From: a virus
Lineage: Duplodnaviria > Heunggongvirae > Uroviricota > Caudoviricetes
Length of the DNA stretch: 64,000 bases
Virus record (IMG/VR): IMGVR_UViG_3300029537_000168
Direction: 5' to 3' (one strand)
A program made the position numbers and the translations under genes. This document shows, piece after piece, positions 2,203-22,011 of the stretch (position 1 is its first letter; every line of letters begins with the position of its first letter). The notes beneath the pieces are model-generated. The model made no database searches, was not told where the DNA came from, and saw only the letters and a list, made by a program, of their open reading frames with translations.

Positions 2203-2787
2203 CTATCTCACTACAAGATTATTCTTTTCAACCAGATGCACACAGTTTATTTGAGCCAGGCAGTCGGCCAGCGGAGTGTGTCTGTCCGCCACCTTCGGAG
2301 GAAGAAGACCTGCACTATCCAGAGCATCCATATACGGACGCACATCGCGCACTTTCCGGAAGTTCCACGGAAGCACTTCTTCGTCGCATCTGTACACGTT
2401 CAAGTTATACCATGAATACATGGAACGAAGCATAGCCACGTCGAAATCCAGCTGAAGACACCATAACGTGAAGTCGTTCCCTTCGTCCGTAGCAGCTATA
2501 AACTGCATGAAATCCTCCAGGAAATCCTCCAGTGGTGTTTCTGCTCCTTCCACAAATTCGCGTCGTGCTTCGTCCGACTGCATCATCCACCATTTCAGCG
2601 TGGATGCTTCTACCTTAAACCCATAGCGGATGGAGTCTGCAAGGTCAATTTTCCACACCTTTTGTCGTCCGGTTTCACCCGTTTGAGGGTCAAACTCTAC
2701 GGCAGCCACCGAACGGACCACGCTTCCAGGTGTCCTTCCCAGCGTTTCCGTATCTATCATTACATGCTTGAATTTCTTCTCTCCCAT
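2203..2787 (-). CDS. DEDDh 3'-5' exonuclease (DUF5051-like)
   Basis: HVMIDTETLG, STLKWW, FDVAML, RDVR, HTPLAD motifs. Confidence 0.8.
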   Translation of the reverse strand: MGEKKFKHVMIDTETLGRTPGSVVRSVAAVEFDPQTGETGRQKVWKIDLADSIRYGFKVEASTLKWWMMQSDEARREFVEGAETPLEDFLEDFMQFIAATDEGNDFTLWCLQLDFDVAMLRSMYSWYNLNVYRCDEEVLPWNFRKVRDVRPYMDALDSAGLLPPKVADRHTPLADCLAQINCVHLVEKNNLVVR

Positions 2788-5932: not shown

Positions 5933-6820
5933 TCAGGTTCGTGTAATTGAATCAATTACTTTTCTGTTTGCTTTATTAAGCAAATCTGTGCTTATGCTTG
6001 ATAAATATATACGTGTAGTTTCCACATTGTCGTGCCCTAATGCCTGACTGATTATCGGAATGTCAATTCTGTTATCTCTGGCTATGCTTGCCCAACTATG
6101 CCTGGCTACATACATAGTAACAGGTACAGAAAGATTCAATTTTTTGCTTATCTGTTTTAAGTAAACATTTGTTCGTTGCATAGTGCTTTTGGGGGTAGAC
6201 TGTATGGCTTTACTTAGCAGCTCATCTCTGTTTTCCCTTGCATATTTTTTCAAAATCTCACGAGCCTTTGGGTGTACTCCGACAATCAGCAATTGTTCGG
6301 TTTTTCTTCGTTTATATTCTATGGTATTACCTTTCAGATTCTCCTTTTTCAATCCAATCAAATCAACAGGAGCCATACCTCTCAGATAAAAAGAAAGCAT
6401 AAATAAATCCTTTGCTTTTTCTTCTTTATCCGATTGGGGTTCATACTGATAGAATTTACGGAAATCAGACAAGTTTAAAGCTCTATGTACCGTTTTTTCA
6501 TTTCCGGTAAAAACACGCCTAAATGGTTTCTTATCTTTAACCATATCTGCATTTACGGCACGATTGTATATAGCCCTGAATATTCTACAATAAAAAGACT
6601 GGGTGTTCTTCGTGCTACCGTTATTATATCGGATATAATCAGAAAAACGTTCTGCCATATCCGCATTTATATCACATATTCTTACATCTTTACCGTTTGA
6701 AAACTCTTTAAATTTCTTTTTAAAAGACAGATAATTCTGATATAATCTTTCTCTGTTCTGTTTTTTGAAAGAATTTAATATTTCATCCGTGTATTTTATA
6801 AGTGTTATATTGTAGTTCAT
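5933..6820 (-). CDS. tyrosine recombinase/integrase (SAM-like plus catalytic domain, no arm-binding domain)
   Basis: YLRGMAPVDL, KRRKT, YVARHSWA, LGHDNVETTRIY. Confidence 0.9.
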   Translation of the reverse strand: MNYNITLIKYTDEILNSFKKQNRERLYQNYLSFKKKFKEFSNGKDVRICDINADMAERFSDYIRYNNGSTKNTQSFYCRIFRAIYNRAVNADMVKDKKPFRRVFTGNEKTVHRALNLSDFRKFYQYEPQSDKEEKAKDLFMLSFYLRGMAPVDLIGLKKENLKGNTIEYKRRKTEQLLIVGVHPKAREILKKYARENRDELLSKAIQSTPKSTMQRTNVYLKQISKKLNLSVPVTMYVARHSWASIARDNRIDIPIISQALGHDNVETTRIYLSSISTDLLNKANRKVIDSITRT

Positions 6821-7271
6821 TATTTGTTTTATTTTTAGTTAATTTATTATCTTTTTTCCCGTTTACATAACGAATTATTGATCCGTCAATCACGTACCAG
6901 TTTTCCAGGCTGGTTCCAAGTTGTGAAAACTGGGGATAAAGTTCGGGAGCTTTGGTGTATAGCCTTCTGGCATGCTGGCGGCAGAACTCGTCCGTTACGA
7001 AAGGAGGACGGACATCATCAGCCTGACGGCTGATTTGGTCGGCTGCTTCAATATCTCCCCGTTGAAATTCCATCAGACAGTCCCTATATAGCTGGAGCCA
7101 TTCTTTATACGGACGATACATCTGGGTGGCAGGATGGTTGAGCCATCCGCGGCCTTTTCCGTTGATAGCGCGGAGAATCTGTTCAGCTTCTATAATCTGT
7201 TTGTTAAGCCGCCGTTTGTCAAGCTGCCTGGCGGTTTGCAGGCAGCTTGGCGATGGTAGGAATATTTGCAT
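6783..7271 (-). CDS. pyrimidine-dimer DNA glycosylase / endonuclease V-like protein
   Basis: MQIFLP...LDKRRLNKQIIEAEQIL...GWLNHPATQMY. Confidence 0.75.
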   Translation of the reverse strand: MQIFLPSPSCLQTARQLDKRRLNKQIIEAEQILRAINGKGRGWLNHPATQMYRPYKEWLQLYRDCLMEFQRGDIEAADQISRQADDVRPPFVTDEFCRQHARRLYTKAPELYPQFSQLGTSLENWYVIDGSIIRYVNGKKDNKLTKNKTNNELQYNTYKIHG

Positions 7272-7283
7272 GATCACTGTTTT

Positions 7284-7703
7284 TTATCTTCTGTTCTCCT
7301 CTTCAATATTGGCAATCATTTCCTCGTAAACTTGCGGAGTTGTTGCCGGGCCCTCGGTGTCGGTCGTACCGATTTGACGTATCACCACCTCACAACCCAG
7401 GAAGTGAGCCATGCGCAGGAAGTTCACTATGTGCGTGTCTTTTCCACGAGAGATGTCGCGGATAGCTTCGTAGGAAACGCCCGTATCTTTGTCGGCCGTC
7501 ATGAAGTGAACTCCGCAAATCTCCGCACGGGTGAACAGGAATTTACCTATTTCCTTGGCCGAATTAATTGCACTGTCCGGATAACGCGGAGGATTTTTCG
7601 GCAGATTCAGTGCACGATGAATGTTGTAGCGGCGGTATCTTACCACCAGATAGCCTGCAAAAAGCAGGACGCAGATAACTGAGAAAATTGTTGTTCCGTC
7701 CAT
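7284..7703 (-). CDS. membrane-anchored protein with possible HTH
   Basis: N-terminal TM helix; ADKDTGVSYEAIRDISRG HTH-like segment. Confidence 0.55.
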   Translation of the reverse strand: MDGTTIFSVICVLLFAGYLVVRYRRYNIHRALNLPKNPPRYPDSAINSAKEIGKFLFTRAEICGVHFMTADKDTGVSYEAIRDISRGKDTHIVNFLRMAHFLGCEVVIRQIGTTDTEGPATTPQVYEEMIANIEEENRR

Positions 7704-7707
7704 AATT

Positions 7708-7935
7708 TTACTCTATTTCGTTTAAACTTTCAATTGATTCTTCAATGCTTGAGAGAGCTTCTTCCATGTATTCTATGTACTCTTGTATCCGTTCTCCTTT
7801 TTCTGATTCCTGGAAAGACTCAGGGAGGTTATCAAAGGCTTCCTGTTCTTCGTCTTTGAGTTCTTCAAGTTCCTCATATACTTTTCTTAACGACTCTCTT
7901 ACGTCTTCGATTTCTTTTCTTCTTTTCTTATTCAT
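7708..7935 (-). CDS. acidic coiled-coil hypothetical protein
   Basis: MNKKRRKEI...DEEQEAFDNLPESFQESEKGE, common phage pattern. Confidence 0.65.
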   Translation of the reverse strand: MNKKRRKEIEDVRESLRKVYEELEELKDEEQEAFDNLPESFQESEKGERIQEYIEYMEEALSSIEESIESLNEIE

Positions 7936-8055
7936 ACGTTTATAATTTAAAAATGAAGAAGGCCGGCGGAGTATTACTCTCCGTCGGCCTTTGCTCTAAC
8001 TTAAAACTTCGCTTCGCAGCGGTAGGAAATTATGATAAATATTTTTGGATATAAA

Positions 8056-8721
8056 TTAACCATCACCAACGCCACAGTCATAAATTTCAGTAATCTTGCG
8101 CCCTTCATGCGATAAACCCGAAGATAGCAGTTTTTCTTTAACGTATCTACGAAAGCCTTCATTCGACTGTACGCCTGAATACCTCGATGCCATACCGTAA
8201 AAGCGTTTAGGAATAGATATTTTATATCCTAATATTTCCTTCTTTATATAGTCATAATCAAAATGAAAAAACCTTTCATTATCTTTTTCAGTAAAGTAAG
8301 AAAAATCAATTTCTATATTATTTTCCACGCAGAATTTATAAGTTTTTTCGCATTCCTGTTTATATCTTTCATAAGCCAATGCTCTTTGCTTATCCTTGCG
8401 CTCTTGTTCTGCTTTCCATAATTCCTCTCTTTCTCTTTTACACTTCAGCACATACTTTAACACAGTTCCTTTAAGTGATACAAACTCACCATTCATTCCA
8501 CCGCGAGGGGCGTCGTTCCCTATTTCATGGCTTATGCCATGCTCTGTAAGAAGTTTATCCAGTTCTTCGGTATAACTCTTTTTATAATAGTAACCTCCAC
8601 TATACCGGCTCCGTACAGTATATGCTTTCCCATTGCGTAATAAATCATCTACATATTGATTCATTACTACACTTTTCTTCTTGTCTGAAAGCTCTCTTAG
8701 TTTTTCTATTTGTGTTTTCAT
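8056..8721 (-). CDS. hypothetical early protein
   Basis: 221-aa ORF with GNDAPRGG motif. Confidence 0.65.
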   Translation of the reverse strand: MKTQIEKLRELSDKKKSVVMNQYVDDLLRNGKAYTVRSRYSGGYYYKKSYTEELDKLLTEHGISHEIGNDAPRGGMNGEFVSLKGTVLKYVLKCKREREELWKAEQERKDKQRALAYERYKQECEKTYKFCVENNIEIDFSYFTEKDNERFFHFDYDYIKKEILGYKISIPKRFYGMASRYSGVQSNEGFRRYVKEKLLSSGLSHEGRKITEIYDCGVGDG

Positions 8722-8990
8722 TGATTTTACTTTTAAAATAATAATTCAGTTATAAAACAGATATAGGAATTATGATGATTTTTTTTGATATAAGATATAA
8801 ATACTATTTTTGTGCCGTCAAGGGATCGTCCCTTGTGGATTAAAACGAAAATCTACCATCGGTAGGTTTTCAGTTGTGAATTGCTTCACACTTTTAGTAT
8901 CTTAGCGCGGCGTACTCCGTCGCGCTTTTTATTTATTTCTATAAACCAGACTACATCATCATACTTCCTCCTTCGTTTCGAGTGTGCATC

Positions 8991-10055
8991 CTAACCAATC
9001 TTTGTCCTGATTTCTTCTATTATCCGACTGCACTCCTCTTTGGATATTTTCCCTGAATACGTTTCATCTACTTCCTTTTCAAATTCTTCCATGTTTCCAC
9101 GAAAATCTTCACAAGTAATTTCCACTTCATTTTTTTTAGTCCGGTAGGCATGTATGTGGCTAATGAATAGGCCTGAAAGATTGAACCCACAATGGCCCTC
9201 ATTGTCCTTTATCTCGGCATTGCCACGTATCCATGTAGGGCAGTGTACTAATTCGTTGTCATTTATCTCAGCATCATATACGTGGGCATTCTCGCATATT
9301 ATAGTCTCGCCACATACAGAGGAACAGCCATACACCTGTGCATTGCCATATATATCAACATTACCATATATATGAGCATTGCCATATACGTGGGCGTTCT
9401 CATATATACTGACATATCCATATACCCAGGCTTCACCATATATGTTGGCATCGCCATACACTTCAGTATTACAATGTATGTTAGCTCTATCGTAAACTTT
9501 AGCATACCCGTATATTTGAGCTTCTTCATGCACCTCGGCATAGCCATACACCTGAGCATTACCATATATTTGTGCTCCGTCATACACCTCGGCATAGCCA
9601 TACACCTGAGCATTACCATATATTTGTGCTCCGTCATACACATCGGCATTGTCATACACTTGAGCATTACCATATATGTATGCTCCGTCATACACATCGG
9701 CATTGTCATACACTTGAGCATTACCATATATGTATGCTCCGCCATACACATTGGCACAGCCATACACCCGGACGTTCCCATGCAACTTTGCATCACCATA
9801 TACCTCTGCGTCATCATATACCTTTGCGTTATCATATACCTGGGCATTGCCGTACACCTGAGCATCACCGAACACCAGAGCATTGTCATACACCCAGGCA
9901 TCACCTTCATGGCTAAGATTGCTTTCTTTTTCAACATAACCTCCAAAGTCGCCTTCTTTGGCGTACTTAAATGATTTTATGCATTTGATTTGAAACAATT
10001 TTTTCCCACTTGCGAGTTTTATGAATTTGTCAGTCAAAATAAATTTCTTTTCCAT
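8991..10055 (-). CDS. hexapeptide-repeat (left-handed beta-helix) protein
   Basis: Many (V/I)YG(N/D)A(Q/E) repeats; GGYVEKESNLS N-domain; start MEKKFIL. Confidence 0.85.
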   Translation of the reverse strand: MEKKFILTDKFIKLASGKKLFQIKCIKSFKYAKEGDFGGYVEKESNLSHEGDAWVYDNALVFGDAQVYGNAQVYDNAKVYDDAEVYGDAKLHGNVRVYGCANVYGGAYIYGNAQVYDNADVYDGAYIYGNAQVYDNADVYDGAQIYGNAQVYGYAEVYDGAQIYGNAQVYGYAEVHEEAQIYGYAKVYDRANIHCNTEVYGDANIYGEAWVYGYVSIYENAHVYGNAHIYGNVDIYGNAQVYGCSSVCGETIICENAHVYDAEINDNELVHCPTWIRGNAEIKDNEGHCGFNLSGLFISHIHAYRTKKNEVEITCEDFRGNMEEFEKEVDETYSGKISKEECSRIIEEIRTKIG

Positions 10056-10159
10056 ATTCCATACAGTTTTTACCGTGTGTCTCACAATTTAGATTAGAAA
10101 ATGTAGTCCGACTGGGTATTACTCCCAGCCGGACTTAAAACAGCCTTTTTAGTCAGGAA

Positions 10160-10471
10160 TTATTCACTAACTAAATTCTGGTAGAAGAAATAATCAAGCA
10201 CTATTACCAGCACTTTTGCTTCTTTGTCGTCGTACCAGTCATCGAAGTCGGCTTTAATTCCGGAATTTGCAAGAATAGTTTCATCATATTCTTCTTCGTC
10301 CATTTCGCTGAAGTCGCATTTTATTTCATCAGGAAGATTGTCAAGATCTATATCCAGCCCTTCTATACTGTCAGTGTGGATTCTATGATTTTTTCCTCTA
10401 TAGACATAAATTTCTACATCTGCACAATTAGACGCTAATTCTTTCAGGTAATTTTTTTCGTAAGTTATCAT
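10160..10471 (-). CDS. acidic hypothetical early protein
   Basis: 103 aa, D/E-rich, leader present. Confidence 0.65.
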   Translation of the reverse strand: MITYEKNYLKELASNCADVEIYVYRGKNHRIHTDSIEGLDIDLDNLPDEIKCDFSEMDEEEYDETILANSGIKADFDDWYDDKEAKVLVIVLDYFFYQNLVSE

Positions 10472-10600
10472 AATTCAACTATTTAATTGGTTAATATTCT
10501 ATTTCATATACTAAAAGTGACCGAAGGTTCATTACTTTACCTTCGGTCTTTTAACTAACTTAAAATTCCGCTTCACAGCGGCAGGAAATTATGATTATTA

Positions 10601-10840
10601 TCATTTCAGAAAACATAATCCGCAACGGTATTCTTTCTTATCTTCCGGAACTTCATATTCTAGCAGGTATTCCGCAAAGAAATCTTTCGCTTCCTCTTCA
10701 GTTCCGTTTACATCTTCACAAGCGCTGTCGTCTAAAATTATTTTCCCATCACATACAAGACGGTAGTATCCGCTTATGGACTGTTCGCATTCAAAATTCT
10801 TTCCTGTTGCTTTTACTACATCCTCAAAACTAGCTTTCAT
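10601..10840 (-). CDS. hypothetical early protein
   Basis: 79 aa, leader present. Confidence 0.6.
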   Translation of the reverse strand: MKASFEDVVKATGKNFECEQSISGYYRLVCDGKIILDDSACEDVNGTEEEAKDFFAEYLLEYEVPEDKKEYRCGLCFLK

Positions 10841-11102
10841 AACTCTAAACAGTTTTTCCCGTGTGCCTCACGATTTGATTAAACATTCGTAGTCCGAAAG
10901 AGTATCACCTCCGCCGGACTTGTTCTAACTTAAAACTAACTTGTGGAATTATTTTGTTAACGGTTTATATGTATTTCTCATAATTCTAAAAGTTTGACGT
11001 TGTAAATATAGTTATTTTTCTCAAGTAGCCGAATGAAAATCACTTTTCATTCGGCTGATTTACTAACTTAAAAACTAACGCTTCACAGCGTGACCGATGG
11101 AA

Positions 11103-11309
11103 TTATATTTCCAAATTATCTAATGCTTCTTTTTCTTCTTTTGACAGAAGACAAACGAAGTCATCGTTACTATAATAACCTTGATCTTCGTCCGGTTCGT
11201 CAAAACATCTTTTAGATGAATACATAACACTGCGTAAAGCATTATACTCGTCTTTTGTAAGACCTAATATGCTTATTGTTCCGTTTTTATTGAATCTTGT
11301 TCTGCTCAT
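11103..11309 (-). CDS. hypothetical early protein
   Basis: MSRTRFNK start defined by conserved leader. Confidence 0.6.
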   Translation of the reverse strand: MSRTRFNKNGTISILGLTKDEYNALRSVMYSSKRCFDEPDEDQGYYSNDDFVCLLSKEEKEALDNLEI

Positions 11310-11376
11310 AATTCTTTTTATTTTATAGTTACACATCGGTTCCGGATCAAGATGCAAACCTGAATCCGGAAGTAGG

Positions 11377-11838
11377 TTAGATGCGCATCATTTCAAGACA
11401 TTGTTTCATAGGTATAAGTTCGTCACCAAAGCATTGTTGCAGGAAATTGTAAGACAGCTTAAAATTTCCTTTTACGCTTCTTATTTTAAATATCTTACCT
11501 TCACATAATGACCTGAGATTTTCATCGTCATTAAGCATCCAGAATAGTTTTTCTAAGGAGTATTTTGGAAGCATCCCAGATATTTGCAATTTACCTACAG
11601 GGTGAACTTCTTTAGGAACATCCATTACTGTTACTTCGGCAGCAAAAATAGGAAAATCAATTATACAATCTTGTAAATCGTTTAGATTGTTATCGTCACC
11701 TTCATATAGGAAAGCATATTTTCTGAATCTGCTCCATATCCCGGGTTTAAGAATACTTTTGGATATTTCTACTGGTTCACCTTTCATGAATGTTTCACCA
11801 TTAGCTACTTTCTCGATTAAATTCTTTTCTACTTTCAT
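11377..11838 (-). CDS. hypothetical early protein
   Basis: 153 aa, conserved leader. Confidence 0.65.
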   Translation of the reverse strand: MKVEKNLIEKVANGETFMKGEPVEISKSILKPGIWSRFRKYAFLYEGDDNNLNDLQDCIIDFPIFAAEVTVMDVPKEVHPVGKLQISGMLPKYSLEKLFWMLNDDENLRSLCEGKIFKIRSVKGNFKLSYNFLQQCFGDELIPMKQCLEMMRI

Positions 11839-11902
11839 AATTCCAAAATTTTAGTTAGACAATGGTTCTCGTACCAATCTTTTAAATCGGTACGAAATTT
11901 TC

Positions 11903-12202
11903 TTAGCGAGCTTTTTCTATTTCCTGGTTGTAATTGTTTTGCAGAAAATACATATCCTCATTATAAAGTACATTCAGATAATTCAGTATTTTCTCCTTAC
12001 TTCTTACTTTCTTTATCTTTGATATGCTACCCATTCCATTGCTGTCAGTTCTTACATCTCCATTTTTAAATATTAAAAGAATACATCCTGTACATCCTTC
12101 CCAATCTGTTATGATTTCTCCTACTTGGAATTTACCATATTCTTTTACTTCGCTTTTATTGGCATAGTGACGAAAATAATGTTTCTCAATATTTATTACC
12201 AT
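11903..12202 (-). CDS. hypothetical early protein
   Basis: 99 aa, conserved leader. Confidence 0.65.
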   Translation of the reverse strand: MVINIEKHYFRHYANKSEVKEYGKFQVGEIITDWEGCTGCILLIFKNGDVRTDSNGMGSISKIKKVRSKEKILNYLNVLYNEDMYFLQNNYNQEIEKAR

Positions 12203-12273
12203 AATTCCTTGTTTTTAAGTTAGACGATAGTACCGGGCTAAGATCGCAGACTTAGACCGGTTAGTAGCTAATT

Positions 12274-12534
12274 TCATTTACGAGGTCTTATTTTTCTGAA
12301 CTTACCTTCATAATCAGCATTTACATGTCCTGATTGAGAAAGGGTTATATTCCTACTTCTTCGATACATTTTATATTCTCCCCACCAATATGCGTTATAT
12401 TTTTTACGCATATACTTGAGCAGATTTATAACTTCGTCAGGTTTTTCTCGTGAGTATTCAAACCATTCTGAAATGCCACCTTTCCCATCATTATCAAATA
12501 CAACTACTAATAGACCTGATTTTTGATTTCCCAT
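12274..12534 (-). CDS. hypothetical early protein
   Basis: 86 aa, conserved leader. Confidence 0.65.
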   Translation of the reverse strand: MGNQKSGLLVVVFDNDGKGGISEWFEYSREKPDEVINLLKYMRKKYNAYWWGEYKMYRRSRNITLSQSGHVNADYEGKFRKIRPRK

Positions 12535-12596
12535 AATTCTTTATTTTAAGTTAGACTATGTATCCGGAGGGAGTATCACTCTCCATCCGGATTTTC

Positions 12597-12788
12597 TTAG
12601 CTGGGAAAATCATCTTCCGTGAAATTAATTCCTGAATATGCCTCTTGTATTACTTTGTCAGAAATAATACTATCTGCTCTGGCAAGTTCATCATAAGAAG
12701 TGCCTTCTCCCGTTTCTTCATTTTGTTGTATCAGATAACTCTGCTTGAGTTCTATCAACTGCTCTCTGTTTAATTCTGATATATACAT
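12597..12788 (-). CDS. hypothetical early protein
   Basis: 63 aa, ELNREQLIELKQSY. Confidence 0.6.
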   Translation of the reverse strand: MYISELNREQLIELKQSYLIQQNEETGEGTSYDELARADSIISDKVIQEAYSGINFTEDDFPS

Positions 12789-12800
12789 GACTATAGGTTT

Positions 12801-13061
12801 TTATTTTTCAAAAAGAAATAATTCATTATTACCAGGTATATATACCTTACCGTTTTCTAAGCATAAGAATAAATCTGACTGACTATTTCCTGATGCTTTA
12901 TAAAACTCGTCGTAATTATATTTTTCTCCTTTGCTCCAGGAATATGTGCTTATACCTAAATCTCTATCAGAACTTATTCTTCTGCATGCTTCCTCGAAAC
13001 ACATGTTTTTCTTTCCTATTGGACAGAAAGTATAACCATTGTATTCAAAATCTTTTTCCAT
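12801..13061 (-). CDS. hypothetical early protein
   Basis: 86 aa, conserved leader. Confidence 0.65.
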   Translation of the reverse strand: MEKDFEYNGYTFCPIGKKNMCFEEACRRISSDRDLGISTYSWSKGEKYNYDEFYKASGNSQSDLFLCLENGKVYIPGNNELFLFEK

Positions 13062-13127
13062 AATTCAAATTTTTAAAAGTTAGACAATAAGTAAGGCAGT
13101 CGGAATCACTTCCGGCTGCCCTCTACA

Positions 13128-14252
13128 TTACAGAGAGAAAGCTGCTCTCAGTTCCGGCTCGCGTTTCTTTGAGAAAACCCAACCAGCACCGCATTTCAAC
13201 TTACCGTTGAATCGTCCGCCAAGCTCTTTGAGCTTCGCTACATAGTCACGGGTGTTACCGATGATGGCCACGGCCTTTTCGCTGTAATCTACAAGCTGCA
13301 AATCAGATTTATTTTCTACGGCTTTTGCTGTAGAACTTACAGGTTTTTCCTCCGGTTTCTGATAAAAATCTATATCACTCAGATAACCCCGTAAACAACT
13401 TGAAGCAGAAGTGTACTGGTTAGATTCCACAAACTCTGAATAAGACTTTGGGAGAAACTGATTTGTTTCAGTTATTCCGATAGCCTCGGGATGTTTGGCA
13501 TAGAATTTTTCTTTTGTTTCATTCCAGATTTTATCAGAATAGCTGCGTTCCAAATCCGGCATATAACCGATTCCACCATATAAGGAAGTAAACTCGCTTT
13601 TGATGTGTTCTTCAATGTCCTCGTATCCGTTAAATGTCGTATCTACAAACTTAGAACAGATTTTAGCAACCATCTTTTCGGTCGGACCGTCCGTCCATCT
13701 TACGTTGTAGCTGTTTGAACCATTCTTTTTGGAATAGAACTTTATACCCGGAAAAGCACGCTTCAGAAGCACAAGCATGTTTTGTTTGGCCGTCTTGTCG
13801 TCATAGCTATTACACTCAGTCAGTATCGAGCCATACTCTTTTCGGAGCTGATCGGTACGATTTTGGCTGGCTATACGTTTGTTTTTCTCCAGACGTTCAT
13901 TCCATGCCTGCTGTACTTCGCACTGGTGAACCAGTTTGGCTATTTCCTGCTCGGGCATACGGTAGTCGGGCTCTTTGTCGTCCCAATAGTAACCAATACC
14001 GAACTTCTTTGATAACGGCTGGTCGTCCTGGCCTACTCTCCAATATGCGAAACGGTGCCATCCTCCAATTTCGGCCATTTGCTGCCGTCCGTGAATGTCA
14101 GGAGCAGAAGTCACGATAAACTTACCGCTTTCGCTTCCTCCATAACCTAAGAATCCATAAACGCGCTGGCCTACTTCGAGAACTTTTTTACCGATTTCTA
14201 CCATCTGAAAACCATTTGACCAATCCATTCTGTACATTTTTCCTGATTCCAT
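13128..14252 (-). CDS. LPD29 (large polyvalent protein domain)-containing protein
   Basis: LKRAFPGIKFYSK...VRWTDGPT; C-terminal DYSEKAVAIIG..LKELGGRFN..GWVF domain. Confidence 0.75.
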   Translation of the reverse strand: MESGKMYRMDWSNGFQMVEIGKKVLEVGQRVYGFLGYGGSESGKFIVTSAPDIHGRQQMAEIGGWHRFAYWRVGQDDQPLSKKFGIGYYWDDKEPDYRMPEQEIAKLVHQCEVQQAWNERLEKNKRIASQNRTDQLRKEYGSILTECNSYDDKTAKQNMLVLLKRAFPGIKFYSKKNGSNSYNVRWTDGPTEKMVAKICSKFVDTTFNGYEDIEEHIKSEFTSLYGGIGYMPDLERSYSDKIWNETKEKFYAKHPEAIGITETNQFLPKSYSEFVESNQYTSASSCLRGYLSDIDFYQKPEEKPVSSTAKAVENKSDLQLVDYSEKAVAIIGNTRDYVAKLKELGGRFNGKLKCGAGWVFSKKREPELRAAFSL

Positions 14253-14314
14253 AATTCTATAAATTTTAAGTTAGACAATGACCCCGGCAGATTCTTAAAA
14301 ACCTGCCGGAATGT

Positions 14315-14857
14315 TTAAGCTACACAGAAGTAGAAATCACCCTGATGGCGGTATCCGCTGGTAAGCAATGTCCTGGAGTATGCTTCGTAGTCGAAATACT
14401 GACCGAACTCTGTTTGAAGTTCTTCAGGCCATTTCATTTCCGCCATATAGGTGGCAAACGCTTCCTCAGAATCAAATTGCCCTGCGTATTTATCTCTGAA
14501 CTTTTCTACGAGCTCTTCACCGTCTTTGATATAGGAATAATCCACAAAGTACATATCAAGAAACGTAAAAAATGCTTCTGTCTCTGTGTCATCCATATCT
14601 TTTGCACACTGAATGATACCAAATATTAGCGGGTCGATATAGCTTTCGTTTATCATACCGTCTGGTATGTTATTATAGTCCTGGTACATAAACTCTGGCT
14701 CTTCCTCGTCGCTATGCAATTCCTTGCAGGCTTCCATAAACTTATCTTTCGATTCATAGTCGGCCAATTCCATCCATGCGCCAGCCAGCGAACCTTCATT
14801 ATATTTCTTATATGTACCTACATATACACTTGCTCTGAGTAATTTTGATTTTTCCAT
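14315..14857 (-). CDS. ardA: antirestriction protein ArdA
   Basis: VYVGTYKKYNEGSLAGAWMEL, EFMYQDY, YFDYEAYSR; highly acidic. Confidence 0.9.
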   Translation of the reverse strand: MEKSKLLRASVYVGTYKKYNEGSLAGAWMELADYESKDKFMEACKELHSDEEEPEFMYQDYNNIPDGMINESYIDPLIFGIIQCAKDMDDTETEAFFTFLDMYFVDYSYIKDGEELVEKFRDKYAGQFDSEEAFATYMAEMKWPEELQTEFGQYFDYEAYSRTLLTSGYRHQGDFYFCVA

Positions 14858-14920
14858 AATTCCTTTGTTTTATAGTTAGACATGGCAGCCGATACAGTTA
14901 CAACGCTGTACCGGCTAATA

Positions 14921-15289
14921 CTATGAAGCTTTGTAGCCATCCTCTGTCTCAATTATCACACCCTGACTGATTGCATAGCTTACAGCCTGCGATGTAACAA
15001 TACCGAAAACGTCACAATCTTTTTTGATGTCATCCATGTACATGTCATTCCAATCTACCTGAACGTCATCATCTTTCACCCATACGTCAATCCATTCGCC
15101 CCACCAACCGTCAGGAAGCTGTACATACACCGCACAACTTCCCGGACCGTCTATCTCGATCTTTGTGGCTACGGCTTCATTCTTGCATATTCTTCTTACT
15201 ATTTTCTTATGATCGGGACGATGATTCATTTGTGAATACATAACTTTTGTAATTCTTTCCCAATCCTGGGTTGTCAATGATTTTGTCAT
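14921..15289 (-). CDS. hypothetical early protein
   Basis: 122 aa, conserved leader. Confidence 0.65.
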   Translation of the reverse strand: MTKSLTTQDWERITKVMYSQMNHRPDHKKIVRRICKNEAVATKIEIDGPGSCAVYVQLPDGWWGEWIDVWVKDDDVQVDWNDMYMDDIKKDCDVFGIVTSQAVSYAISQGVIIETEDGYKAS

Positions 15290-15353
15290 AATTCCTATAG
15301 TTTTAAGTTAGTAATCGTGTCTGGAAGTACCGTAAAGTACCTCCAGCATGGAA

Positions 15354-15569
15354 TTAATACCCCATAGCGTCGTAGTACGATTTGTTTTTTACGTACTCTT
15401 TTGCTATTTCGTAGTCACTGCAATCTTCGCCGAGCTTTGCGCTAATACTTTCGTATGCGCTTTTTGGCATTACATAGATAACCTGTTCGCTCCAGTCGGA
15501 ACGACCAGCGAAACACAAAGCCACGAATAAAAACACGCAGCACAGAATGACTTTCATTTTCTTTTTCAT
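15354..15569 (-). CDS. small exported/membrane protein
   Basis: MKKKMKVILCCVFLFVALCFAG signal-like N-terminus. Confidence 0.6.
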   Translation of the reverse strand: MKKKMKVILCCVFLFVALCFAGRSDWSEQVIYVMPKSAYESISAKLGEDCSDYEIAKEYVKNKSYYDAMGY

Positions 15570-15630
15570 AACTCAAACTATTTAAGAAGTTTGCAGGCCG
15601 TACACTGGCAAAGGTGAACGGCCTGATAGG

Positions 15631-15837
15631 TCATAGTCTGATAGCATTCTGGCAAGCAAAATCTGTAGATAGAATATGTAAAACTTGCATATCTGATATT
15701 TCTTTATATCGCGCATTCCGATTTGAATAGTCCATACAAACTGCTTTTGCGTGATTTAGAATGTTTGTTACGCATAGATTAATATTTTTACCATTCCATG
15801 TGTTACATGTTACCAGATAAAATTTATTTTTTACCAT
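15631..15837 (-). CDS. hypothetical early protein flanked by direct repeats
   Basis: 68 aa, conserved leader. Confidence 0.55.
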   Translation of the reverse strand: MVKNKFYLVTCNTWNGKNINLCVTNILNHAKAVCMDYSNRNARYKEISDMQVLHILSTDFACQNAIRL

Positions 15838-15900
15838 AATTCAAAATAATTTTAAGTTGTGATTGCAGGCCGTACACCGGTAAAGGTGAACGGCCTGATT

Positions 15901-16206
15901 TTAATCATTAAGCATAGAAGCTATTGCTTTCTGCTCTTCCTGGAATTTATTCCATTCTCTTTCTTCTTCCGCTTTCCGATTCATTCGATATGAGCTGTAT
16001 CTTTGTTTTTCCAGCACGTCCATACTTTCATATTCACGTACAAACTCCCGGTGAAACTTCAATGTATCTGAAACTTCATAGCATACACCATCTTTGGCAA
16101 GACGATAATTACATTCAGATTCATAAGCTTTTTCAAACTTTGTAGCACATGAAGTAAAAACAGAAGCACACAATACGATTGATACGGATAAGATGATAGT
16201 TTTCAT
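15901..16206 (-). CDS. putative lipoprotein
   Basis: MKTIILSVSIVLCASVFTSC lipobox. Confidence 0.65.
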   Translation of the reverse strand: MKTIILSVSIVLCASVFTSCATKFEKAYESECNYRLAKDGVCYEVSDTLKFHREFVREYESMDVLEKQRYSSYRMNRKAEEEREWNKFQEEQKAIASMLND

Positions 16207-16224
16207 AATTCAAAAAGTTTATAG

Positions 16225-16910
16225 TTATACATACAAGAAGTGCCATGCACCCGAAAGCGCATAGCACTACATAGGTAGGGGTTTTCCGTACCACCCCCGA
16301 AGCTGGTTTTCGTTGCGTTGACGCATACCCGCCTATATGCACCATGATACACTATTTGCATAGCGTTCACGGATACACTTTTCGCATAGACGACCTTTGC
16401 AGGCGCACCGCCATACAGACACACGTGTCCGCATGGTACGTTGATTCCATAGGCCCGGATAACTCCCAGCCCGTTCCATACATACGCTAAAACAGTATGG
16501 ATCTTTTCCGGTTAACTACTCCGGCATACACCCAAGATTGAACAGGGCATAGCACACCCGTACATGAATCCATACGGACACGGTGCACCCTGACTGATCG
16601 TTCAACACGTTGCAGGACTCACCGCACCCATACGGGTACAGTTATGCCATAGAATTATGAATTATGATTTTCGCGGCCCTGGATACCTTCAGACTCTTGG
16701 CCTGGATGACTATAGGCGCATGGACACACCTATCCGCACAACACATAGTAAACCCGTGTTGTGTTTCAAGACGGCCCACAGTGCAGCCTTATGCAGCTGG
16801 AGTGTATAGTCCCAAATACTACATATAGATACCCTTTTCGCCGGCCGTATGAGATAGAATATATTTTTGTGGGTGTCCGGGAATCGGACCCGGACGAATA
16901 CCATACACCC
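16225..16910 (-). ncRNA. candidate long non-coding RNA, UAUG-rich
   Basis: No convincing ORF; about 18 CATA on plus strand; tRNA-minihelix-like 5' part. Confidence 0.4.
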
Positions 16911-16916
16911 TAAATA

Positions 16917-17456
16917 TTAAGCCGCGTCTACAATACGTTCTGCTATTTGTAGCAACATATCTTCAGAAGCGTCTAAGAATTCTATTTTTAAAGCTTGCAA
17001 TGTAGCGTTTATCTTAGATTCACGTTTTTCTGCTTTCTTTGTTTCTTTCTTTGCCTCTTTCTCTTTTGCTGCTTTTTCCAGTTTTTCCTTTGCCTGATTT
17101 ATTTGTAGCAAACTTTCTAAGCTTGCAAAAAAATCATCTTCATCGAATCTTATTGGAACGTATTCGAAATATTTTTTCCCTATCTGGACTACTTTTAATT
17201 CGTTCCCGTCCAATGTTTCAATATCTGATAATCTTTTTAATTTACAGAAAACAGGCAAACCGTCTCCAAGCTCGAAGCTTAGCAACATAGAAAGATCAAC
17301 TTTCTTTATACCGTAAAAATCTAAGTATCTTTTGATTTTTTCCTGATCACGGTTTTTGTTTATTGTGTTCATAACGCCAAACGGTGATCTATTAAGCTTT
17401 TTAGTTTCTTTTTTAGCTTCGCGTCTCAATACTGATTTAGATACATTTGTTTTCAT
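16917..17456 (-). CDS. Lys-rich first gene of early operon
   Basis: 179 aa, conserved leader, repeated EAKKETKK. Confidence 0.7.
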   Translation of the reverse strand: MKTNVSKSVLRREAKKETKKLNRSPFGVMNTINKNRDQEKIKRYLDFYGIKKVDLSMLLSFELGDGLPVFCKLKRLSDIETLDGNELKVVQIGKKYFEYVPIRFDEDDFFASLESLLQINQAKEKLEKAAKEKEAKKETKKAEKRESKINATLQALKIEFLDASEDMLLQIAERIVDAA

Positions 17457-17939
17457 AATTCCATAATTTTAAGTTAGTAATATAGTAACGGGTATCGACT
17501 ATGCACGACCCGGGAGAACATAGTTCACCCGTTAGGCTACCTTTCGGCTCCTTTCCCGTTATCAATATATTACTATCTCATACGGATTATTTGTTACAGA
17601 CTAACCGCGCCGCGTGTACTTTGTTCCGTTTGCTTTCGTGTGTGGCTTGCAAACTATGCAAGCCGGGAAAGTATCAAACTATGATAGTGAACAGGATCAC
17701 CAGCCGGAACGCGGATCACGTTTATACGGTTTTTTTTCAAAGAACGTTTTTTCTTTCTGGATATTTTCGGGAACGGAAAGAAAAACGTATCTTTGTTTTG
17801 CGACAAACAGAAGAAAGTTTTATCTTTCTTTTTCCCGCGGGTATTCCTGTAATACCCGCTTTTTATACCTGGAAAGAACGTTTTCCGGGCTTTGGGAAGC
17901 CCCGGAGGCTTCTTGTAATCTTTGTTTTCGATTACACTA

Positions 17940-17969
17940 CAAAGGTACATAATATTCTCTATTGTGCAA
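17940..17969 (-). promoter_or_regulatory. Bacteroidota primary-sigma promoter of early operon
   Basis: TTG-N19-TACCTTTG. Confidence 0.65.
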
Positions 17970-18056
17970 TAGGTGTACACATTTTTCTCTATTATTTTAA
18001 CCGTTATTTAATATTCGGTCCAAAATGAAAGGTTTATTCACATTTTCGCGCGCTTT

Positions 18057-18092
18057 CTGGTGGCGTTCCTCACCATGTAGGAACGCCACCAG
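18057..18092. repeat. perfect 14-8-14 inverted repeat
   Basis: CTGGTGGCGTTCCT-caccatgt-AGGAACGCCACCAG. Confidence 0.95.
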
Positions 18093-18260
18093 CAGCCACC
18101 AGCGGACATCAGCAGCCACCAGCGGACATCAGCAGCCACCAGCGGACATCAGCAGCCACCAGCGGACAGCAGCAGCCACCAGCGGACAGCAGCAGCCACC
18201 AGCGGACACCAGCAGCCACCAGCGGACATCAGCAGCCACCAGCGGACAGCAGCAGCCACC
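18091..18260. repeat. 20-bp tandem repeat, 8.5 units
   Basis: AGCAGCCACCAGCGGACA(T/G/C)C units. Confidence 0.97.
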
Positions 18261-18403
18261 ACCCGGGCATATATCACCGACGGACGGGGCCCCAGAGGGA
18301 CACGTCCCACGTAGCGAGGCGCGGGGTTTTCATCGTGAATCGGGCAAAAATCTTTTGTTTCAACTCCAAATTATCAGATTGTTATTCAGTTTTGAAGGGA
18401 ATA

Positions 18404-18440
18404 CAAAAAAAGGCAACCGGATTCCGTCCGATTGCCTTTA
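18404..18440 (-). terminator. intrinsic terminator
   Basis: AAAGGCAATCGGA..TCCGGTTGCC hairpin followed by T7. Confidence 0.6.
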
Positions 18441-18505
18441 TATACTTTATGTATTGTCCTTTCTACATACGTTTCCTTTTAGTATCTTTGCTAAAAATAA
18501 AAAAT

Positions 18506-18967
18506 CTATGAAGAAAAGAAAATTGATTTGCACCATTGTAGGAATAATTTTAGGAGCTCCTTTAGGTTTGGTGATAGGGTATATATTAAGGAAGTACATA
18601 CTGCTGTTACTGCAATAGTCAGTATGGTATGACTGTCTTTTATTATTGAAAGGATTTTTGATATGACTTCAAGTCTTTTCATCTTAATGTCTAACCGTTG
18701 GTTAGAGTGTATCTTTCTGATATAGTTACTTATTCCTAAATTTATAGCTACCTCACCATTGGAAGACAAGCATATCCATGATTTTGAGCGATAAATAAGC
18801 TTATAGTCTTCTATCATTCGGCTTATCACAAAAGTACTTTCTAATTGATTGAAAGAATTATCTACACTCTCAAGTTTATCAAGAAGGTCACTTTCCCTTA
18901 TATGTCCATTTGATTCTTTTAATACTAAAAGTATTTTTTCTGCTATGATGTTTTGCTTCTCATTCAT
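18506..18967 (-). CDS. AT-rich accessory protein (winged-helix-like N-terminus, C-terminal TM)
   Basis: 153 aa; own promoter and structured leader at 18980-19086. Confidence 0.6.
   Translation of the reverse strand: MNEKQNIIAEKILLVLKESNGHIRESDLLDKLESVDNSFNQLESTFVISRMIEDYKLIYRSKSWICLSSNGEVAINLGISNYIRKIHSNQRLDIKMKRLEVISKILSIIKDSHTILTIAVTAVCTSLIYTLSPNLKELLKLFLQWCKSIFFSS
18508..18618 (+). CDS. 36-aa hydrophobic peptide antisense to previous gene
   Basis: MKKRKLICTIVGIILGAPLGLVIGYILRKYILLLLQ; preceded by late-type promoter 18455-18490. Confidence 0.45.
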   Translation: MKKRKLICTIVGIILGAPLGLVIGYILRKYILLLLQ

Positions 18968-19131
18968 ATCTTAAAAAAATCACATCTTCATGCCGTGCGC
19001 CCACAGAGAACCACTCTGAATCCGATTTTACGGATTACACGGCATGAAGATGTGACTTATAGTTCTTTATGGGCATTACAAATATACAATTTCTTTTTTA
19101 TGATAATCTGTTTTGTGTGAAATTTAATTTT

Positions 19132-19617
19132 TCACAGAGTTAATTCAATAGATAGAAGCTTGTTCCCTATTTCAATGAGTGAAAGATTTATCATATTGAT
19201 GTCTTCCTGTTTAAATGATGCTTTTGTAGAATTTTTTCGCATCCTGTTAAGGTACCATGAGGTGCTTTTCTTCATCTTACCAATATATATATAGGGCATT
19301 GAAACCATATCTGATACAGACTGAATCTGCCCAATTATTCCCTGCCTTACTGAAAGTGAATCTTTATTCTCTACCGTTGGGATATAAATCCTTGTACTGA
19401 CAAGCTTTTTCCCCATTTCATTAAACAATTCGTTTAATGTATTCACATCGGATTGATTAAATCCTTTTGATGTAGTTATTATCTTGTCACTATTTAATTT
19501 AGTATATATCCATCCGCTTGATTTTCCCAGTGCGTCGGTTACATACTTTAGCTTCACCATTTCTGCTATCATAGGTAAAGCTTGCTTTACGGGTACTTTG
19601 ATTTTTTCTGTTTCCAT
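19132..19617 (-). CDS. protein with two HTH-like repeats
   Basis: LGKSSGWIYTKL..GFNQSDVNTLN and MKKSTSWYLNRM..SFKQEDINMIN. Confidence 0.6.
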   Translation of the reverse strand: METEKIKVPVKQALPMIAEMVKLKYVTDALGKSSGWIYTKLNSDKIITTSKGFNQSDVNTLNELFNEMGKKLVSTRIYIPTVENKDSLSVRQGIIGQIQSVSDMVSMPYIYIGKMKKSTSWYLNRMRKNSTKASFKQEDINMINLSLIEIGNKLLSIELTL

Positions 19618-19682
19618 TGCGCTATCTTTCTTTTTCCAATGCAAAAGTACATAATATTCTTTATTTACACAAGCATTTTCAC

Positions 19683-19716
19683 AAAAAAAGAGGCATCCTC
19701 ACGGGCACCCCTCTCT
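19683..19716 (-). terminator. intrinsic terminator
   Basis: GAGGGGTGCCCGTGAGGATGCCTC followed by T7. Confidence 0.6.
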
Positions 19717-19742
19717 CAACAAAAAAAGAAGACTGAAAGATT

Positions 19743-20225
19743 TTATGTAAATCCGCCACCTCCCTCGTCAGGGTCTGTTCCTCCTTGCTCGGTTCCTCCA
19801 CCCGGTTCAGGTTCCTGTCCGGCTGTCTCCTCTTCGTCGTAATCTTCCATCGTAGTGACAGACATTCCTTCAAGCATCTGCTTGAAACGCTTGCCGGGAT
19901 AGAAAAGGATTTTCTTTCGGGTGACGTTTTCGGCAGTCACATCGTCGGCAGTGGCTCCCGTCTTTGAGTTGAAGGTAGGCTTGAAAGAACCGAAGTCGCC
20001 CAGCTTTACGGGCATGCCGTAGTTCATGAACACAATCATACGGTCGATAAGCGCTTCGAGCACCGCTTTTGTCTGCGAACGGTTCACACCGCATGAGTTA
20101 CTCACTTCATTAAGAAGGTCGTCGAAAGTGACGGGTTGCTGACGTACCGGCTTGATGCGGTAAACCTCCGGCTTGTCTTTCTTGAAGCCGAGGATGATTT
20201 TCTGTTTTTCGTAAACGATTGCCAT
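19743..20225 (-). CDS. Bacteroidota HU-related DNA-binding protein
   Basis: GMPVKLGDFGSFKPTF, ILFYPGKRFK, Gly/Glu tail. Confidence 0.85.
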   Translation of the reverse strand: MAIVYEKQKIILGFKKDKPEVYRIKPVRQQPVTFDDLLNEVSNSCGVNRSQTKAVLEALIDRMIVFMNYGMPVKLGDFGSFKPTFNSKTGATADDVTAENVTRKKILFYPGKRFKQMLEGMSVTTMEDYDEEETAGQEPEPGGGTEQGGTDPDEGGGGFT

Positions 20226-20272
20226 AGTTTAATCGTGTTTTTAAGGTTTGTACTACTTGTCTTTCGACAACT

Positions 20273-20314
20273 CTAAATTACCTCCCAGACCGACCGTTTT
20301 TGAAGGACAAAAAA
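20273..20314 (-). promoter_or_regulatory. late-type promoter
   Basis: TTTTGTCCTTCA-N20-TAATTTAG. Confidence 0.6.
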
Positions 20315-20342
20315 TACTTCTGAAACTGGCTTTTGAATCGTG

Positions 20343-20456
20343 CGCCAGCAACCTCTAAAGTGGTTTGCCGCAAACCTCTCGAGCGATATGCAGCAAACCT
20401 CTCAAGTGGTTTGCTGCATTTGTTTTGAGTGGCCCTACAGACTATTGTGGAGGGGG
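20343..20456. repeat. 114-bp element, copy 1
   Basis: 4 mismatches to 62517-62630; three internal GCAAACCTCTCAAGTGGTTTGC-like units. Confidence 0.95.
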
Positions 20457-20749
20457 TTCGCAGAAACGTAGTTTCCCATCATCATAAGAAGGGTTTTCTG
20501 GCCGCTCGTGTCGGACGAAAGAAAGTCCAGAATCTCCTTGAAAAGTGAGCGCGAGCACTCGCGTTTCACACTGACCAGATAACCGTTGCCGAGCAGACTT
20601 TCCAGCTCACGGCGCACGGTGTGTTCGGGCATGAAGTCCTCGTATTCCACATAGGCCAGCACGCCATGGCGTGTGACGGTAAACATAATGCTGTGTCTTA
20701 TTTCCCCGAAATAGCCGTTTATGGCCTTTCTTGCTTCGCGCTTTTTCAT
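20435..20749 (-). CDS. hypothetical protein, paralog of 23980-24273
   Basis: YVEYEDFMPEH..SVKRECS; ATGA overlap with KilA gene. Confidence 0.65.
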   Translation of the reverse strand: MKKREARKAINGYFGEIRHSIMFTVTRHGVLAYVEYEDFMPEHTVRRELESLLGNGYLVSVKRECSRSLFKEILDFLSSDTSGQKTLLMMMGNYVSANPLHNSL

Positions 20750-21747: not shown

Positions 21748-22011
21748 AACAATATATGTATAAAAAAGTGTTATCGCCTTTCCCGTTGCTCAACACATTA
21801 CACAAATGCTGTATTCCCATTACAGGTTTACACGGGGGTACGATAACACCTAATATGTTAAAAGTGAGGTCACAAAAATAACCTGCACGATTTATGCAAG
21901 TTCACGACCTGCATTTGTGTATGTTGTATGTTGAGCATTGCAAATATACAACAAATATCACAAAAGCAAGCGGAAAGGGAGAAATAATCATTCCTCCCTT
22001 TTAATTTCTTG

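Follow-up and report, generated by a model that had tools for sequence, protein, structure and literature searches.

The region between positions 7961 and 17480 of a 64,000-nucleotide stretch of phage DNA (IMG/VR record IMGVR_UViG_3300029537_000168; the whole stretch is called the window here) raises the question of how a row of small genes comes to share one sequence ahead of its start codons and to be divided by GC-rich hairpins. The window is tailed-phage DNA, of a Bacteroidales-type (gut-type) host; nearly every gene in it lies on the minus strand, as do all genes of the row and the coding strand of its hairpins and leaders. The answer favored here, with somewhat better than even confidence, is that a Bacteroidales phage has here a variable region made of gene cassettes, each an open reading frame (ORF) behind a shared 27-nt leader with a GC-rich hairpin after it; that genes are exchanged at the leaders; that the leader is likely a translation start independent of the Shine-Dalgarno (SD) sequence; and that the hairpins likely have a stabilizing or attenuating role in the sense RNA.

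The leader is best seen in its strong copies, which stand before 11 genes with ATGs from 17456 to 11312 (units 1 to 11 in Table 1). It reads (G)TCTAACTTAAAA, about 5 variable bases, (G)GAATTATG, and the distance from its TAAC to the ATG is almost constant, at ~21 nt. The word TAACTTAAAA occurs exactly nine times in the window, always within 7997-17476; with at most one mismatch it has 17 matches, as against 9.0 +/- 3.4 in shuffles. A hidden Markov model (HMM) built from the window's own leaders, which served to collect the units, finds 12 minus-strand copies in the window: 11 at E <= 0.074, which are those of units 1 to 11, and a weak twelfth before a 10-codon ORF at 10981. Degenerate leaders precede the genes at 15569 and 10471. 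Every unit that leads a gene has the orientation of the genes themselves. Forward units are restricted to 10979-17480, and the leader-hairpin repeats are concentrated before small genes of mostly unassigned family, which is the hyperplastic setting described for the PeSL (promoter-early stem-loop) repeats discussed below. A sequence-only reading of the same DNA had counted about 15 genes starting with the leader, ardA and the LPD29 gene among them. The pattern is real, and both named genes have leaders, at ATGs 14857 and 14252; the number comes down to 11-13 leader-bearing genes, with five further copies reversed and starting no gene.

That the leaders are places of exchange follows from comparison with relatives. 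A search with ArdA gave 66 virus loci, of which 35, at >=81% ArdA identity, are close relatives; each of these carries 11-17 forward units. The 31 distant loci carry none or one, and one of them (L061) has two reversed leader matches. Between the window and the nearest virus record (G001, 85 kb, sharing 59% of sampled words with the window), homology blocks alternate with replaced genes. Limited to forward units with enough flanking DNA, the window and its 35 relatives supply 530 units; these represent 37 families of hairpins and 58 of downstream genes, joined in 100 different combinations. When the window was compared with the 35 relatives in homology blocks of at least 200 bp, 144 of 305 block ends fell inside one of the 11 leaders or within 3 nt of it, intervals that together cover 5.3% of the region. 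The common descent of the relatives means that these ends are not independent of one another. Each of the 11 leaders has such ends, piled up at the leader's 5' edge (-26 to -21) or at +2/+3 from the ATG.

The hairpins tell which side of the joint they belong to. Families of at least 5 copies number 24; of these, 16 go with a single upstream-gene family and 3 with a single downstream family; a few families are repeated behind several genes, the largest with 83 copies and 9 upstream families. As the hairpin usually belongs to the preceding gene, the exchange joint lies after the hairpin. Within the leader, linkage changes gradually: its 5' edge is linked to the hairpin family (25/209 identical, against 2/64) and its spacer to the downstream gene (26/64, against 24/209), which fits exchange within a short shared patch. 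Exchange also takes place inside related hairpins, since the genome of one relative has a hybrid hairpin, part 10107-type and part 7961-type. Relatives are found, too, as short contigs in four wastewater metatranscriptome runs of one study, covering 6000-22000 almost evenly. One of these RNA-library contigs 'goes back' from 10102 to 7971; the joint equals that of the hybrid hairpin in the relative's genome, and for that reason is no evidence for a mini-circle. Loose ends at 10598, 10850, 14890, 15286 and 15296 merely repeat the mosaicism. Taken as sequence comparison, these results show that related phages have exchanged genes at leaders, and the breakpoints in relatives bear out the earlier suggestion that the shared leader serves as homology for gene shuffling; as DNA, the leader would be a short homology patch for recombination.

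What the leader does as RNA is suggested by its position. In the available excerpt of Baez et al. 2019 (PMC6847099), Bacteroidetes are described as lacking SD sequences, with A's over-represented at -14 to -11, and profiling together with reporter mutagenesis in a Bacteroidetes model identifies A at -12, -13, -3 and -6 as promoting initiation. Among the 100 combinations, A is present in 86 at -14, 98 at -13, 94 at -12, 98 at -4 and 97 at -3, counts inflated by the use of an HMM of the window's own leaders to collect the units; -11 is A in 52. G-5 (97), T-2 (100) and T-1 (99) are likewise nearly invariant. The A-box (-14 to -9) has the lowest mean pairing probability in the unit, 0.27, the hairpin arms having 0.88. 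The 52 other minus-strand genes of the window have an A fraction of 0.52-0.63 at -14 to -11 and of 0.58 at -3, and nine of the 52 have C[TA]1-3TAAA at the matching distance (0.67 expected at random positions). In view of this similar composition, and of the box before other phage genes, the leader looks like a sharpened form of the phage's general start region. Position (A-14 to A-12, A-3), the least-paired A-box and the box before 9/52 other genes thus support the common translation element that had been proposed from the sequence; the A-box at -14 to -12, with A-3, would recruit Bacteroidia ribosomes.

The leader is not a common host signal. The exact 20-base pattern has 37 isolated matches in 596 Gb of prokaryote genomes, which contain no rows (arrays) of it, and that possibility was rejected. 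Seven longer ORFs behind such matches were scanned, from five Bacteroidales, one Aquimarina and one further metagenome-assembled genome (all Bacteroidota). In four, Pfam domains are placed as expected of a true start (alanine dehydrogenase, signal peptidase, HU-HIG and a TPR protein), the alanine dehydrogenase aligning from profile position 1; the other three have no Pfam match. Pairing of the leader with 16S rRNA, after the T7 'epsilon' idea, was also rejected: the best perfect complement, given by a Flavobacterium 16S and a partial Prevotella 16S, is 7 nt, and shuffled leaders equal it. A pattern scan of the whole virus collection found rows of the motif in this phage group only. The literature searched, supplements excluded, yielded no description of the motif or of such rows in Bacteroidales phages, and a text search with two 11-mers of the motif returned unrelated papers only. 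A second shared leader, AATCnAAATnGTGAGnCACACGGnAAAAACTGT, unrelated to the main one, precedes the genes starting at 10840 and 10055 (10841-10890 and 10056-10104, minus strand).

Transcription seems to be arranged at a larger scale than the single unit. The Bacteroidetes promoter consensus, TTTG/TANNTTTG, is revised to TAHHTTTG in the available part of PMC6847099; TAHHTTTG is present in only 1 of 278 distinct units. To judge by their sequences, the units are shown to hold no host primary-sigma promoter box. Good matches that include a -33 TTG lie upstream of the row, at 17947 and 19649 (minus strand). One or a few such host-type promoters, 17947 being the candidate, would transcribe the row as long RNAs, and RNA polymerase would pass hairpins that lack U-tracts. 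The row had been called an early anti-defense operon. We infer 'early' from the host-type promoter upstream and from the timing of ArdA, which must act early; 'anti-defense' is thin, ArdA being its basis within the window.

The hairpins themselves are real. A GC-rich hairpin stands before each leader, beginning 3-12 nt past the preceding stop codon; all nine positions listed by the sequence-only reading hold one, as does almost every other gap (17 hairpins counted in the window, leaving out a 4-bp stem before ATG 8721). Stems have 9-17 bp, mostly 9-14, with 10-13 the usual range, and the distance from hairpin to leader is 0-34 nt. Against shuffles, the fold z is < -2 in 32 of 37 family representatives (median -3.8), and the sense fold beats the antisense in stability in 26 of the 37 families. 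Coding-strand stems, taken with a strand-symmetric finder, have 34 G.T and 10 A.C in 400 pairs, where a rough estimate from strand base skews predicts a ratio near 1. One-sided stem changes within families gave G.U 21 times and A.C twice, beside 4 compensatory and 13 pair-breaking changes; variable columns number 42/558 in stems and 93/692 elsewhere. The G.U/A.C asymmetry, the within-family changes and the low variability of stems argue that the hairpins are selected as sense-strand RNA. U-tails are mostly absent, as had been noticed earlier: the 8 nt after the stem hold 3.4 T on average, and at least 5 T in 5 of 31 families. An intrinsic terminator combines a GC-rich hairpin with a U-tract, and the row hairpins are mostly not of that form; canonical terminators occur elsewhere in the window, for example at 8904-8926 (plus strand) and 18409-18439 (minus strand). 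In the favored scheme the hairpins would stand in the way of 3' exonucleases and hold the leader that follows in single-stranded form. Rfam gave nothing at gathering score over the whole window, and only sub-threshold chance matches in 7500-19000. Two copies of one hairpin (15594-15625 and 15866-15897) flank the gene 15631-15837, and in one RNA-library contig 15590 runs directly into 15863, the arrangement that lacks this gene.

Five leader copies are reversed, on the plus strand, each 3' of a minus-strand gene (Table 1). In the window and relatives together, reversed copies lead an ORF of at least 40 aa in 0/82 cases, forward copies in 502/531. One supposed plus-strand gene behind a reversed leader (10591-10833) was rejected, with variable sites by codon position of 6/11/4 and stops in 2/16 homologues; the minus-strand ORF 10601-10840 is coding, at 7/5/12 and 0/16. 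Read on the coding strand, a reversed copy runs stop codon, CAUAAUUC, sometimes a mini-hairpin CGCU-GYGA-AGCG, UUUUAAGUUAGA, hairpin. The TAA stop of the gene falls inside the reversed GGAATTAT in three of the five, and three have mini-hairpins whose coding-strand loop is GTGA or GCGA. Such copies are not simple inversions of a whole unit, because the hairpin loop keeps its coding-strand orientation. In the minimum-energy folds of three of the five gaps, CAUAAUUC pairs with GAAUUAUG or GAGUUAUG of the next gene and encloses the whole gap; the predicted pairing of CAUAAUUC, which holds or adjoins the upstream stop codon, with GAAUUAUG would mask the next start codon (10455-10604, 10830-10975 and 10975-11112, minus strand) and, if the folds are right, may couple the translation of neighboring genes. 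The reversed copies may, then, be relics of inversions between hairpin arms, or elements coupling their neighbors' translation.

The word GTCTAAC is harder to place. It occurs eight times in the window, six of them inside the row, with the only plus-strand copy at 18689; in the leader it sits ~24 nt before the ATG, outside the hairpin stems. With it begin the points that weigh against a cassette row whose leader is a translation start. The leader keeps GTCTAAC, GG at -6/-5 and TT at -2/-1, which the composition rule leaves unexplained, and does not keep A-6, a published determinant (A in 13 of the 100 combinations, T in 25, G in 61). In a second phage group (L042-L061), with an ArdA 38% identical, GTCTAAC lies 24-25 nt ahead of the start codons of two genes and follows a hairpin in both cases (for example, L043 at 5351 and 10382); the genes are an ArdA-like gene and a 188-aa gene beside a Clp-protease/capsid (structural) module. 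At one locus of that group, GTCTAAC stays by the hairpin, 54 nt from the ATG. To these may be added the inflation of the conservation figures already mentioned; the closeness of the relatives (~80-98% identical), because of which conservation of the reversed copies says little; and the nature of the RNA-library contigs, which carry neither strand nor transcript ends and may be DNA carry-over. These observations suggest for GTCTAAC a sequence-specific role tied to the hairpin, with a cleavage site as the best guess, and the favored scheme would accommodate it as a further, sequence-specific function at about -24.

One way to understand such a role is through RNA processing: an endoribonuclease would cut the long transcript between hairpin and A-box, at or near GUCUAAC, leaving the upstream mRNA capped at its 3' end by the hairpin and the downstream mRNA with a short, defined leader. 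This is unlikely as the main account of the row, and is compatible with the translation-start role. Sense-strand selection on the hairpins, their position 3-12 nt past the stop codon, their lack of U-tails and the persistence of GTCTAAC near the hairpin in the second phage group, even with a distant ATG, all speak for it. The phage also encodes a protein with an Rv2179c-like 3'-5' exoribonuclease domain (2203-2787, minus strand; Pfam E 4.4e-38), and, were this domain to act on mRNA, hairpins at the 3' ends of phage messages would be useful as protection. Against it, the RNA-library contigs give no mapped RNA ends; the stems, mostly 9-14 bp long, are too short for canonical RNase III sites, which have ~20 bp, or about two helical turns; and we know of no nuclease that recognizes GTCTAAC.

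A second perspective takes GTCTAAC, ~24 nt before the start and beside the hairpin, to be the dedicated target of one particular factor, which would be an endoribonuclease or a phage transcription factor of an unconventional kind. On this view the row would capture and express genes on its own, as a self-contained platform, in bacteria without SD sequences. The reversed copies would be working parts and not relics: their CAUAAUUC, which holds the upstream stop, would pair with the GAAUUAUG that follows, and translating one cassette would open the start of its downstream neighbor. We regard this, too, as improbable.

A third perspective, somewhat more doubtful again, supposes that the units are PeSLs in the full sense: a phage-specific promoter, formed by the leader or by its GTCTAAC...TAAAA part, would serve the host RNA polymerase together with an unrecognized phage factor, and each hairpin would terminate the preceding one-gene transcript. 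The layout of hairpin, conserved box and start codon is that described in the accessible portion of PMC2839356; the motif is confined to the row (6/8 of the GTCTAAC in the window) and to this phage group; GTCTAAC is kept in the second group; and a sigma region-4-like/LuxR helix-turn-helix protein is encoded at 50842-51477. However, a host -7 box is present in 1/278 units only, and no conserved element stands at a -33-like distance, the hairpins being different and 0-34 nt from the leader. A transcript starting just past the box would have a 5' untranslated region of <=12 nt, and the A-box would be lost from the mRNA; the hairpins, moreover, have no U-tracts. Sigma70_r2 was found in 0/3 genomes (two complete relatives and the nearest record), with the control positive in 10/14 genomes. 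The search for a T7-like phage RNA polymerase (PF00940) had no match and is uninformative, as its control was silent too.

The remaining two alternatives fare much worse. The sequence-only reading had pointed to GNRA loops on variable stems as a sign of RNA-level selection and had invoked the boxB hairpin of phage λ. The loops are there: GTAA, GTGA or GCGA lies in the coding-strand loop of 9/17 window hairpins. The variable-stem signal is not: GNRA is found in the loop of 8/31 hairpin families and of 6/31 in the antisense control, strict tetraloops number 2/31, and 4 of the 9 window loops belong to one conserved, repeated hairpin, CCGGnnGGAG-AGTRATA-CTCCnnCCGG. Since they are largely one family, the repeated GNRA mostly reflects shared ancestry, not convergence on variable stems; selection at the RNA level stands on the G.U/A.C asymmetry instead, and the comparison with boxB is not supported. 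Hairpins whose GNRA loops are bound by an antitermination or other phage RNA-binding protein are therefore very improbable, even with the GTGA/GCGA mini-hairpins of three reversed copies in their favor, as loops are of many kinds and lengths and no Rfam match was obtained.

Integron-like capture, in which the tyrosine recombinase encoded nearby (5933-6820) would cut an attC-like site made up of GTCTAAC and the hairpin, is scarcely credible: the layout of the row is cassette-like and GTCTAAC fits RYYYAAC, which in attC sites is one of two complementary cores (the other being GTTRRRY) flanking the palindrome, but no hairpin of the row is flanked on its far side by a complementary GTTAGAC on the coding strand, GTCTAAC itself is not part of the stems, the gradual change of linkage fits homologous exchange and not a single cut site, exchanges took place inside hairpins too (the hybrid hairpin), and the recombinase is of ordinary make-up (Phage_int_SAM_5 and Phage_integrase by Pfam).

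Table 1. Coordinates of the units, reversed leaders and promoter candidates of the cassette row, in window positions
Feature	Coordinates	Strand	Remarks
Candidate host-type promoter before the row: TTG, 19 nt, TACCTTTG	17940..17969 (-7 box 17947-17940)	-	fits TTTG/TANNTTTG (TAHHTTTG)
Near-twin host-type promoter, before DUF5053 gene	19642-19672 (19649)	-	shares GAATATTATGTACYTTTG with 17940-17969; TTG 19-20 nt upstream in both
Unit 1: hairpin 17511-17531 within longer structure, leader 17454-17480; ATG 17456, 179-aa ORFan	17454..17531	-	
Structured stretch, 710 nt, no long ORF; reversed leader fragment 16648-16667	16207..16916	-	fold z (see text)
Unit 2: hairpin 16239-16268, loop TTTCGG, and leader; ATG 16206	16204..16268	-	
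Unit 3: hairpin 15866-15897, loop TTTACC, and leader; ATG 15837	15835..15897	-	
Degenerate unit: hairpin 15594-15625 (copy of unit 3 hairpin) and decayed leader; ATG 15569	15567..15625	-	
Unit 4: hairpin 15321-15346, loop TTTACG, and leader; ATG 15289	15287..15346	-	26 block ends at 15286
Unit 5 and cargo: hairpin 14887-14916, leader 14855-14883, ardA 14315-14857	14315..14916	-	24 block ends at 14883
Unit 6 and cargo: hairpin 14284-14309, leader 14250-14276, LPD29-domain gene 13128-14252	13128..14309	-	
Unit 7: hairpin 13093-13122 (strict GTGA tetraloop) and leader; ATG 13061	13059..13122	-	20 block ends at 13059
Unit 7 cargo: two-gene cassette	12801-13061 and 12597-12788	-	
Unit 8: hairpin 12562-12592 (repeated conserved family, loop AGTGATA) and leader; ATG 12534	12532..12592	-	
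Unit 9: hairpin 12232-12261 and leader; ATG 12202	12200..12261	-	13 block ends at 12200
Unit 10: hairpin 11867-11897 and leader; ATG 11838	11836..11897	-	
Unit 11: hairpin 11340-11371 and leader; ATG 11312	11310..11371	-	
Composite gap: reversed leader 11062-11106 (+) with mini-hairpin CGCT-GTGA-AGCG; hairpin 11027-11056 (GTGA loop); weak forward leader, 10-codon ORF 10981	10979..11106	-	
Reversed leader 10924-10952 (+), hairpin 10891-10920, then second-type leader; ATG 10840	10891..10952	-	
Reversed leader 10554-10593 (+) with mini-hairpin, then hairpin 10519-10548	10519..10593	-	
Reversed leader 10131-10164 (+) fused to hairpin 10105-10135, loop AGTAATA	10105..10164	-	
Last element of the row: reversed leader 7995-8034 (+) with mini-hairpin; hairpin 7959-7991, T-rich tail on coding strand	7959..8034	-	

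Two stretches in and near the row may encode RNAs of their own. On the minus strand, 16207-16916 folds at -259.5 kcal/mol in the sense direction (z -4.95) and at -195.2 in the antisense (z -1.67), and 16203-16720 is kept at 94-98% identity in relatives in which the neighboring genes are swapped; the reversed fragment at 16648-16667 forms an inverted repeat with the leader at 16202-16215. Folding thus makes this stretch, which has no Rfam match, a candidate large structured RNA. On the plus strand, between two minus-strand genes, 8775-8936 is a candidate small RNA: a host-type promoter (TTG, 17 nt, TATTTTTG) at 8805 is followed by ~110 nt with four hairpins (fold z -6.5), the last being the U-tailed canonical terminator at 8904-8926.

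Most genes carried by the row have no family match in Pfam or PHROG. The ardA product matches Pfam ArdA (E 1.6e-23) and a PHROG anti-restriction protein (E 2.3e-23), and the LPD29-domain gene matches Pfam LPD29 (E 2.5e-14). No Pfam or PHROG family matched 17 of the 21 ORFs scanned (19 row genes, one rejected plus-strand frame and 3 neighbors). Cargo in the corresponding slots of relatives includes DUF4121, DUF3560, DUF4942, BRCT and YopX domains; of 55 further representatives of cargo in relatives, 48 lack a match in Pfam. DUF4121, DUF3560, DUF4942 and LPD29 are typical of the leading regions of conjugative elements. Megablast of the region against public phage records gave no match.

Elsewhere in the window, Pfam identifies a tape-measure protein (56544-62525), a primase-type protein (47241-50540), KilA-N/ANT, HU-HIG and DUF5053 proteins and a TnpB-like gene. 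One protein (28084-28791, minus strand) joins a crAss001_48-related domain to a Tad2-like (Thoeris anti-defense 2) domain. A beta-solenoid (YdcK-repeat) gene at 8991-10055 (minus strand) is made of 54-nt tandem repeats, and its BLAST comparison with relatives gives ladders of offset matches, so that the number of repeats probably varies. The contigs of two relatives stop near window position 18200. A position of the row at a physical genome end was considered and dropped, the 'terminal repeat' of one record (G003) being a 57-nt overlap inside a simple tandem repeat.

The cassette account, if correct, places shuffling of the T4 style, at a shared control element, in a Bacteroidales phage; and as the element seems to be a ribosome start region, not a promoter, short translation leaders could serve as recombination joints. 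The leader would also give expression work in Bacteroidales a start signal that occurs naturally, is compact and can be carried from gene to gene, with 58 unrelated genes found behind it. The ~58 small gene families that occupy ardA-type swappable slots are candidates for new functions in counter-defense or host takeover.

Among known systems, the intercistronic RNase III sites of the T7 early region were brought up for the row from the outset. Both have hairpins between genes in a long early transcript, sense-strand selection and no U-tail. In the phage studied here, the stems, mostly 9-14 bp, fall short of the RNase III norm, that analogy is not supported, and the leader paired with each hairpin doubles as a recombination joint. 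Integron cassettes resemble the row in having co-oriented, promoterless small genes split by variable, imperfect palindromes; they differ in that the row has no paired core sites and no IntI-type evidence, and its exchange looks homologous.

The SD-independent starts of Bacteroidia, as far as the available excerpt of PMC6847099 describes them, share with the leader an A-box with A-12 and A-13, A-3, low pairing and the absence of an SD sequence. The published signal is a loose rule of composition, whereas here an exact 27-nt sequence stands before 58 unrelated gene families; G replaces A-6; and GTCTAAC at -24 is absent from the signal as given in that excerpt.

The closest likeness is to the PeSLs of T4-type phages, in the accessible portions of Arbiol et al. 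2010 (PMC2839356) and Comeau et al. 2014 (PMC4122927). There, too, a hyperplastic region has short composite repeats between its genes, which are small and mostly unknown; a stem-loop precedes a conserved block whose last bases are the start codon (PMC2839356); and relatives differ by replacement, gain and loss of genes at the repeats. In the present row, by contrast with those partial descriptions, the conserved block has no host-consensus promoter (1/278) and coincides with the translation start region of a host without SD sequences; the hairpins are without U-tracts and for the most part stay with the gene upstream; and reversed leader copies mark the 3' ends of genes. Because the promoter is missing from the units, the row is not filed as PeSL. 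It is a PeSL variant: PeSL-like at the level of DNA, with a translation leader as the shared block.

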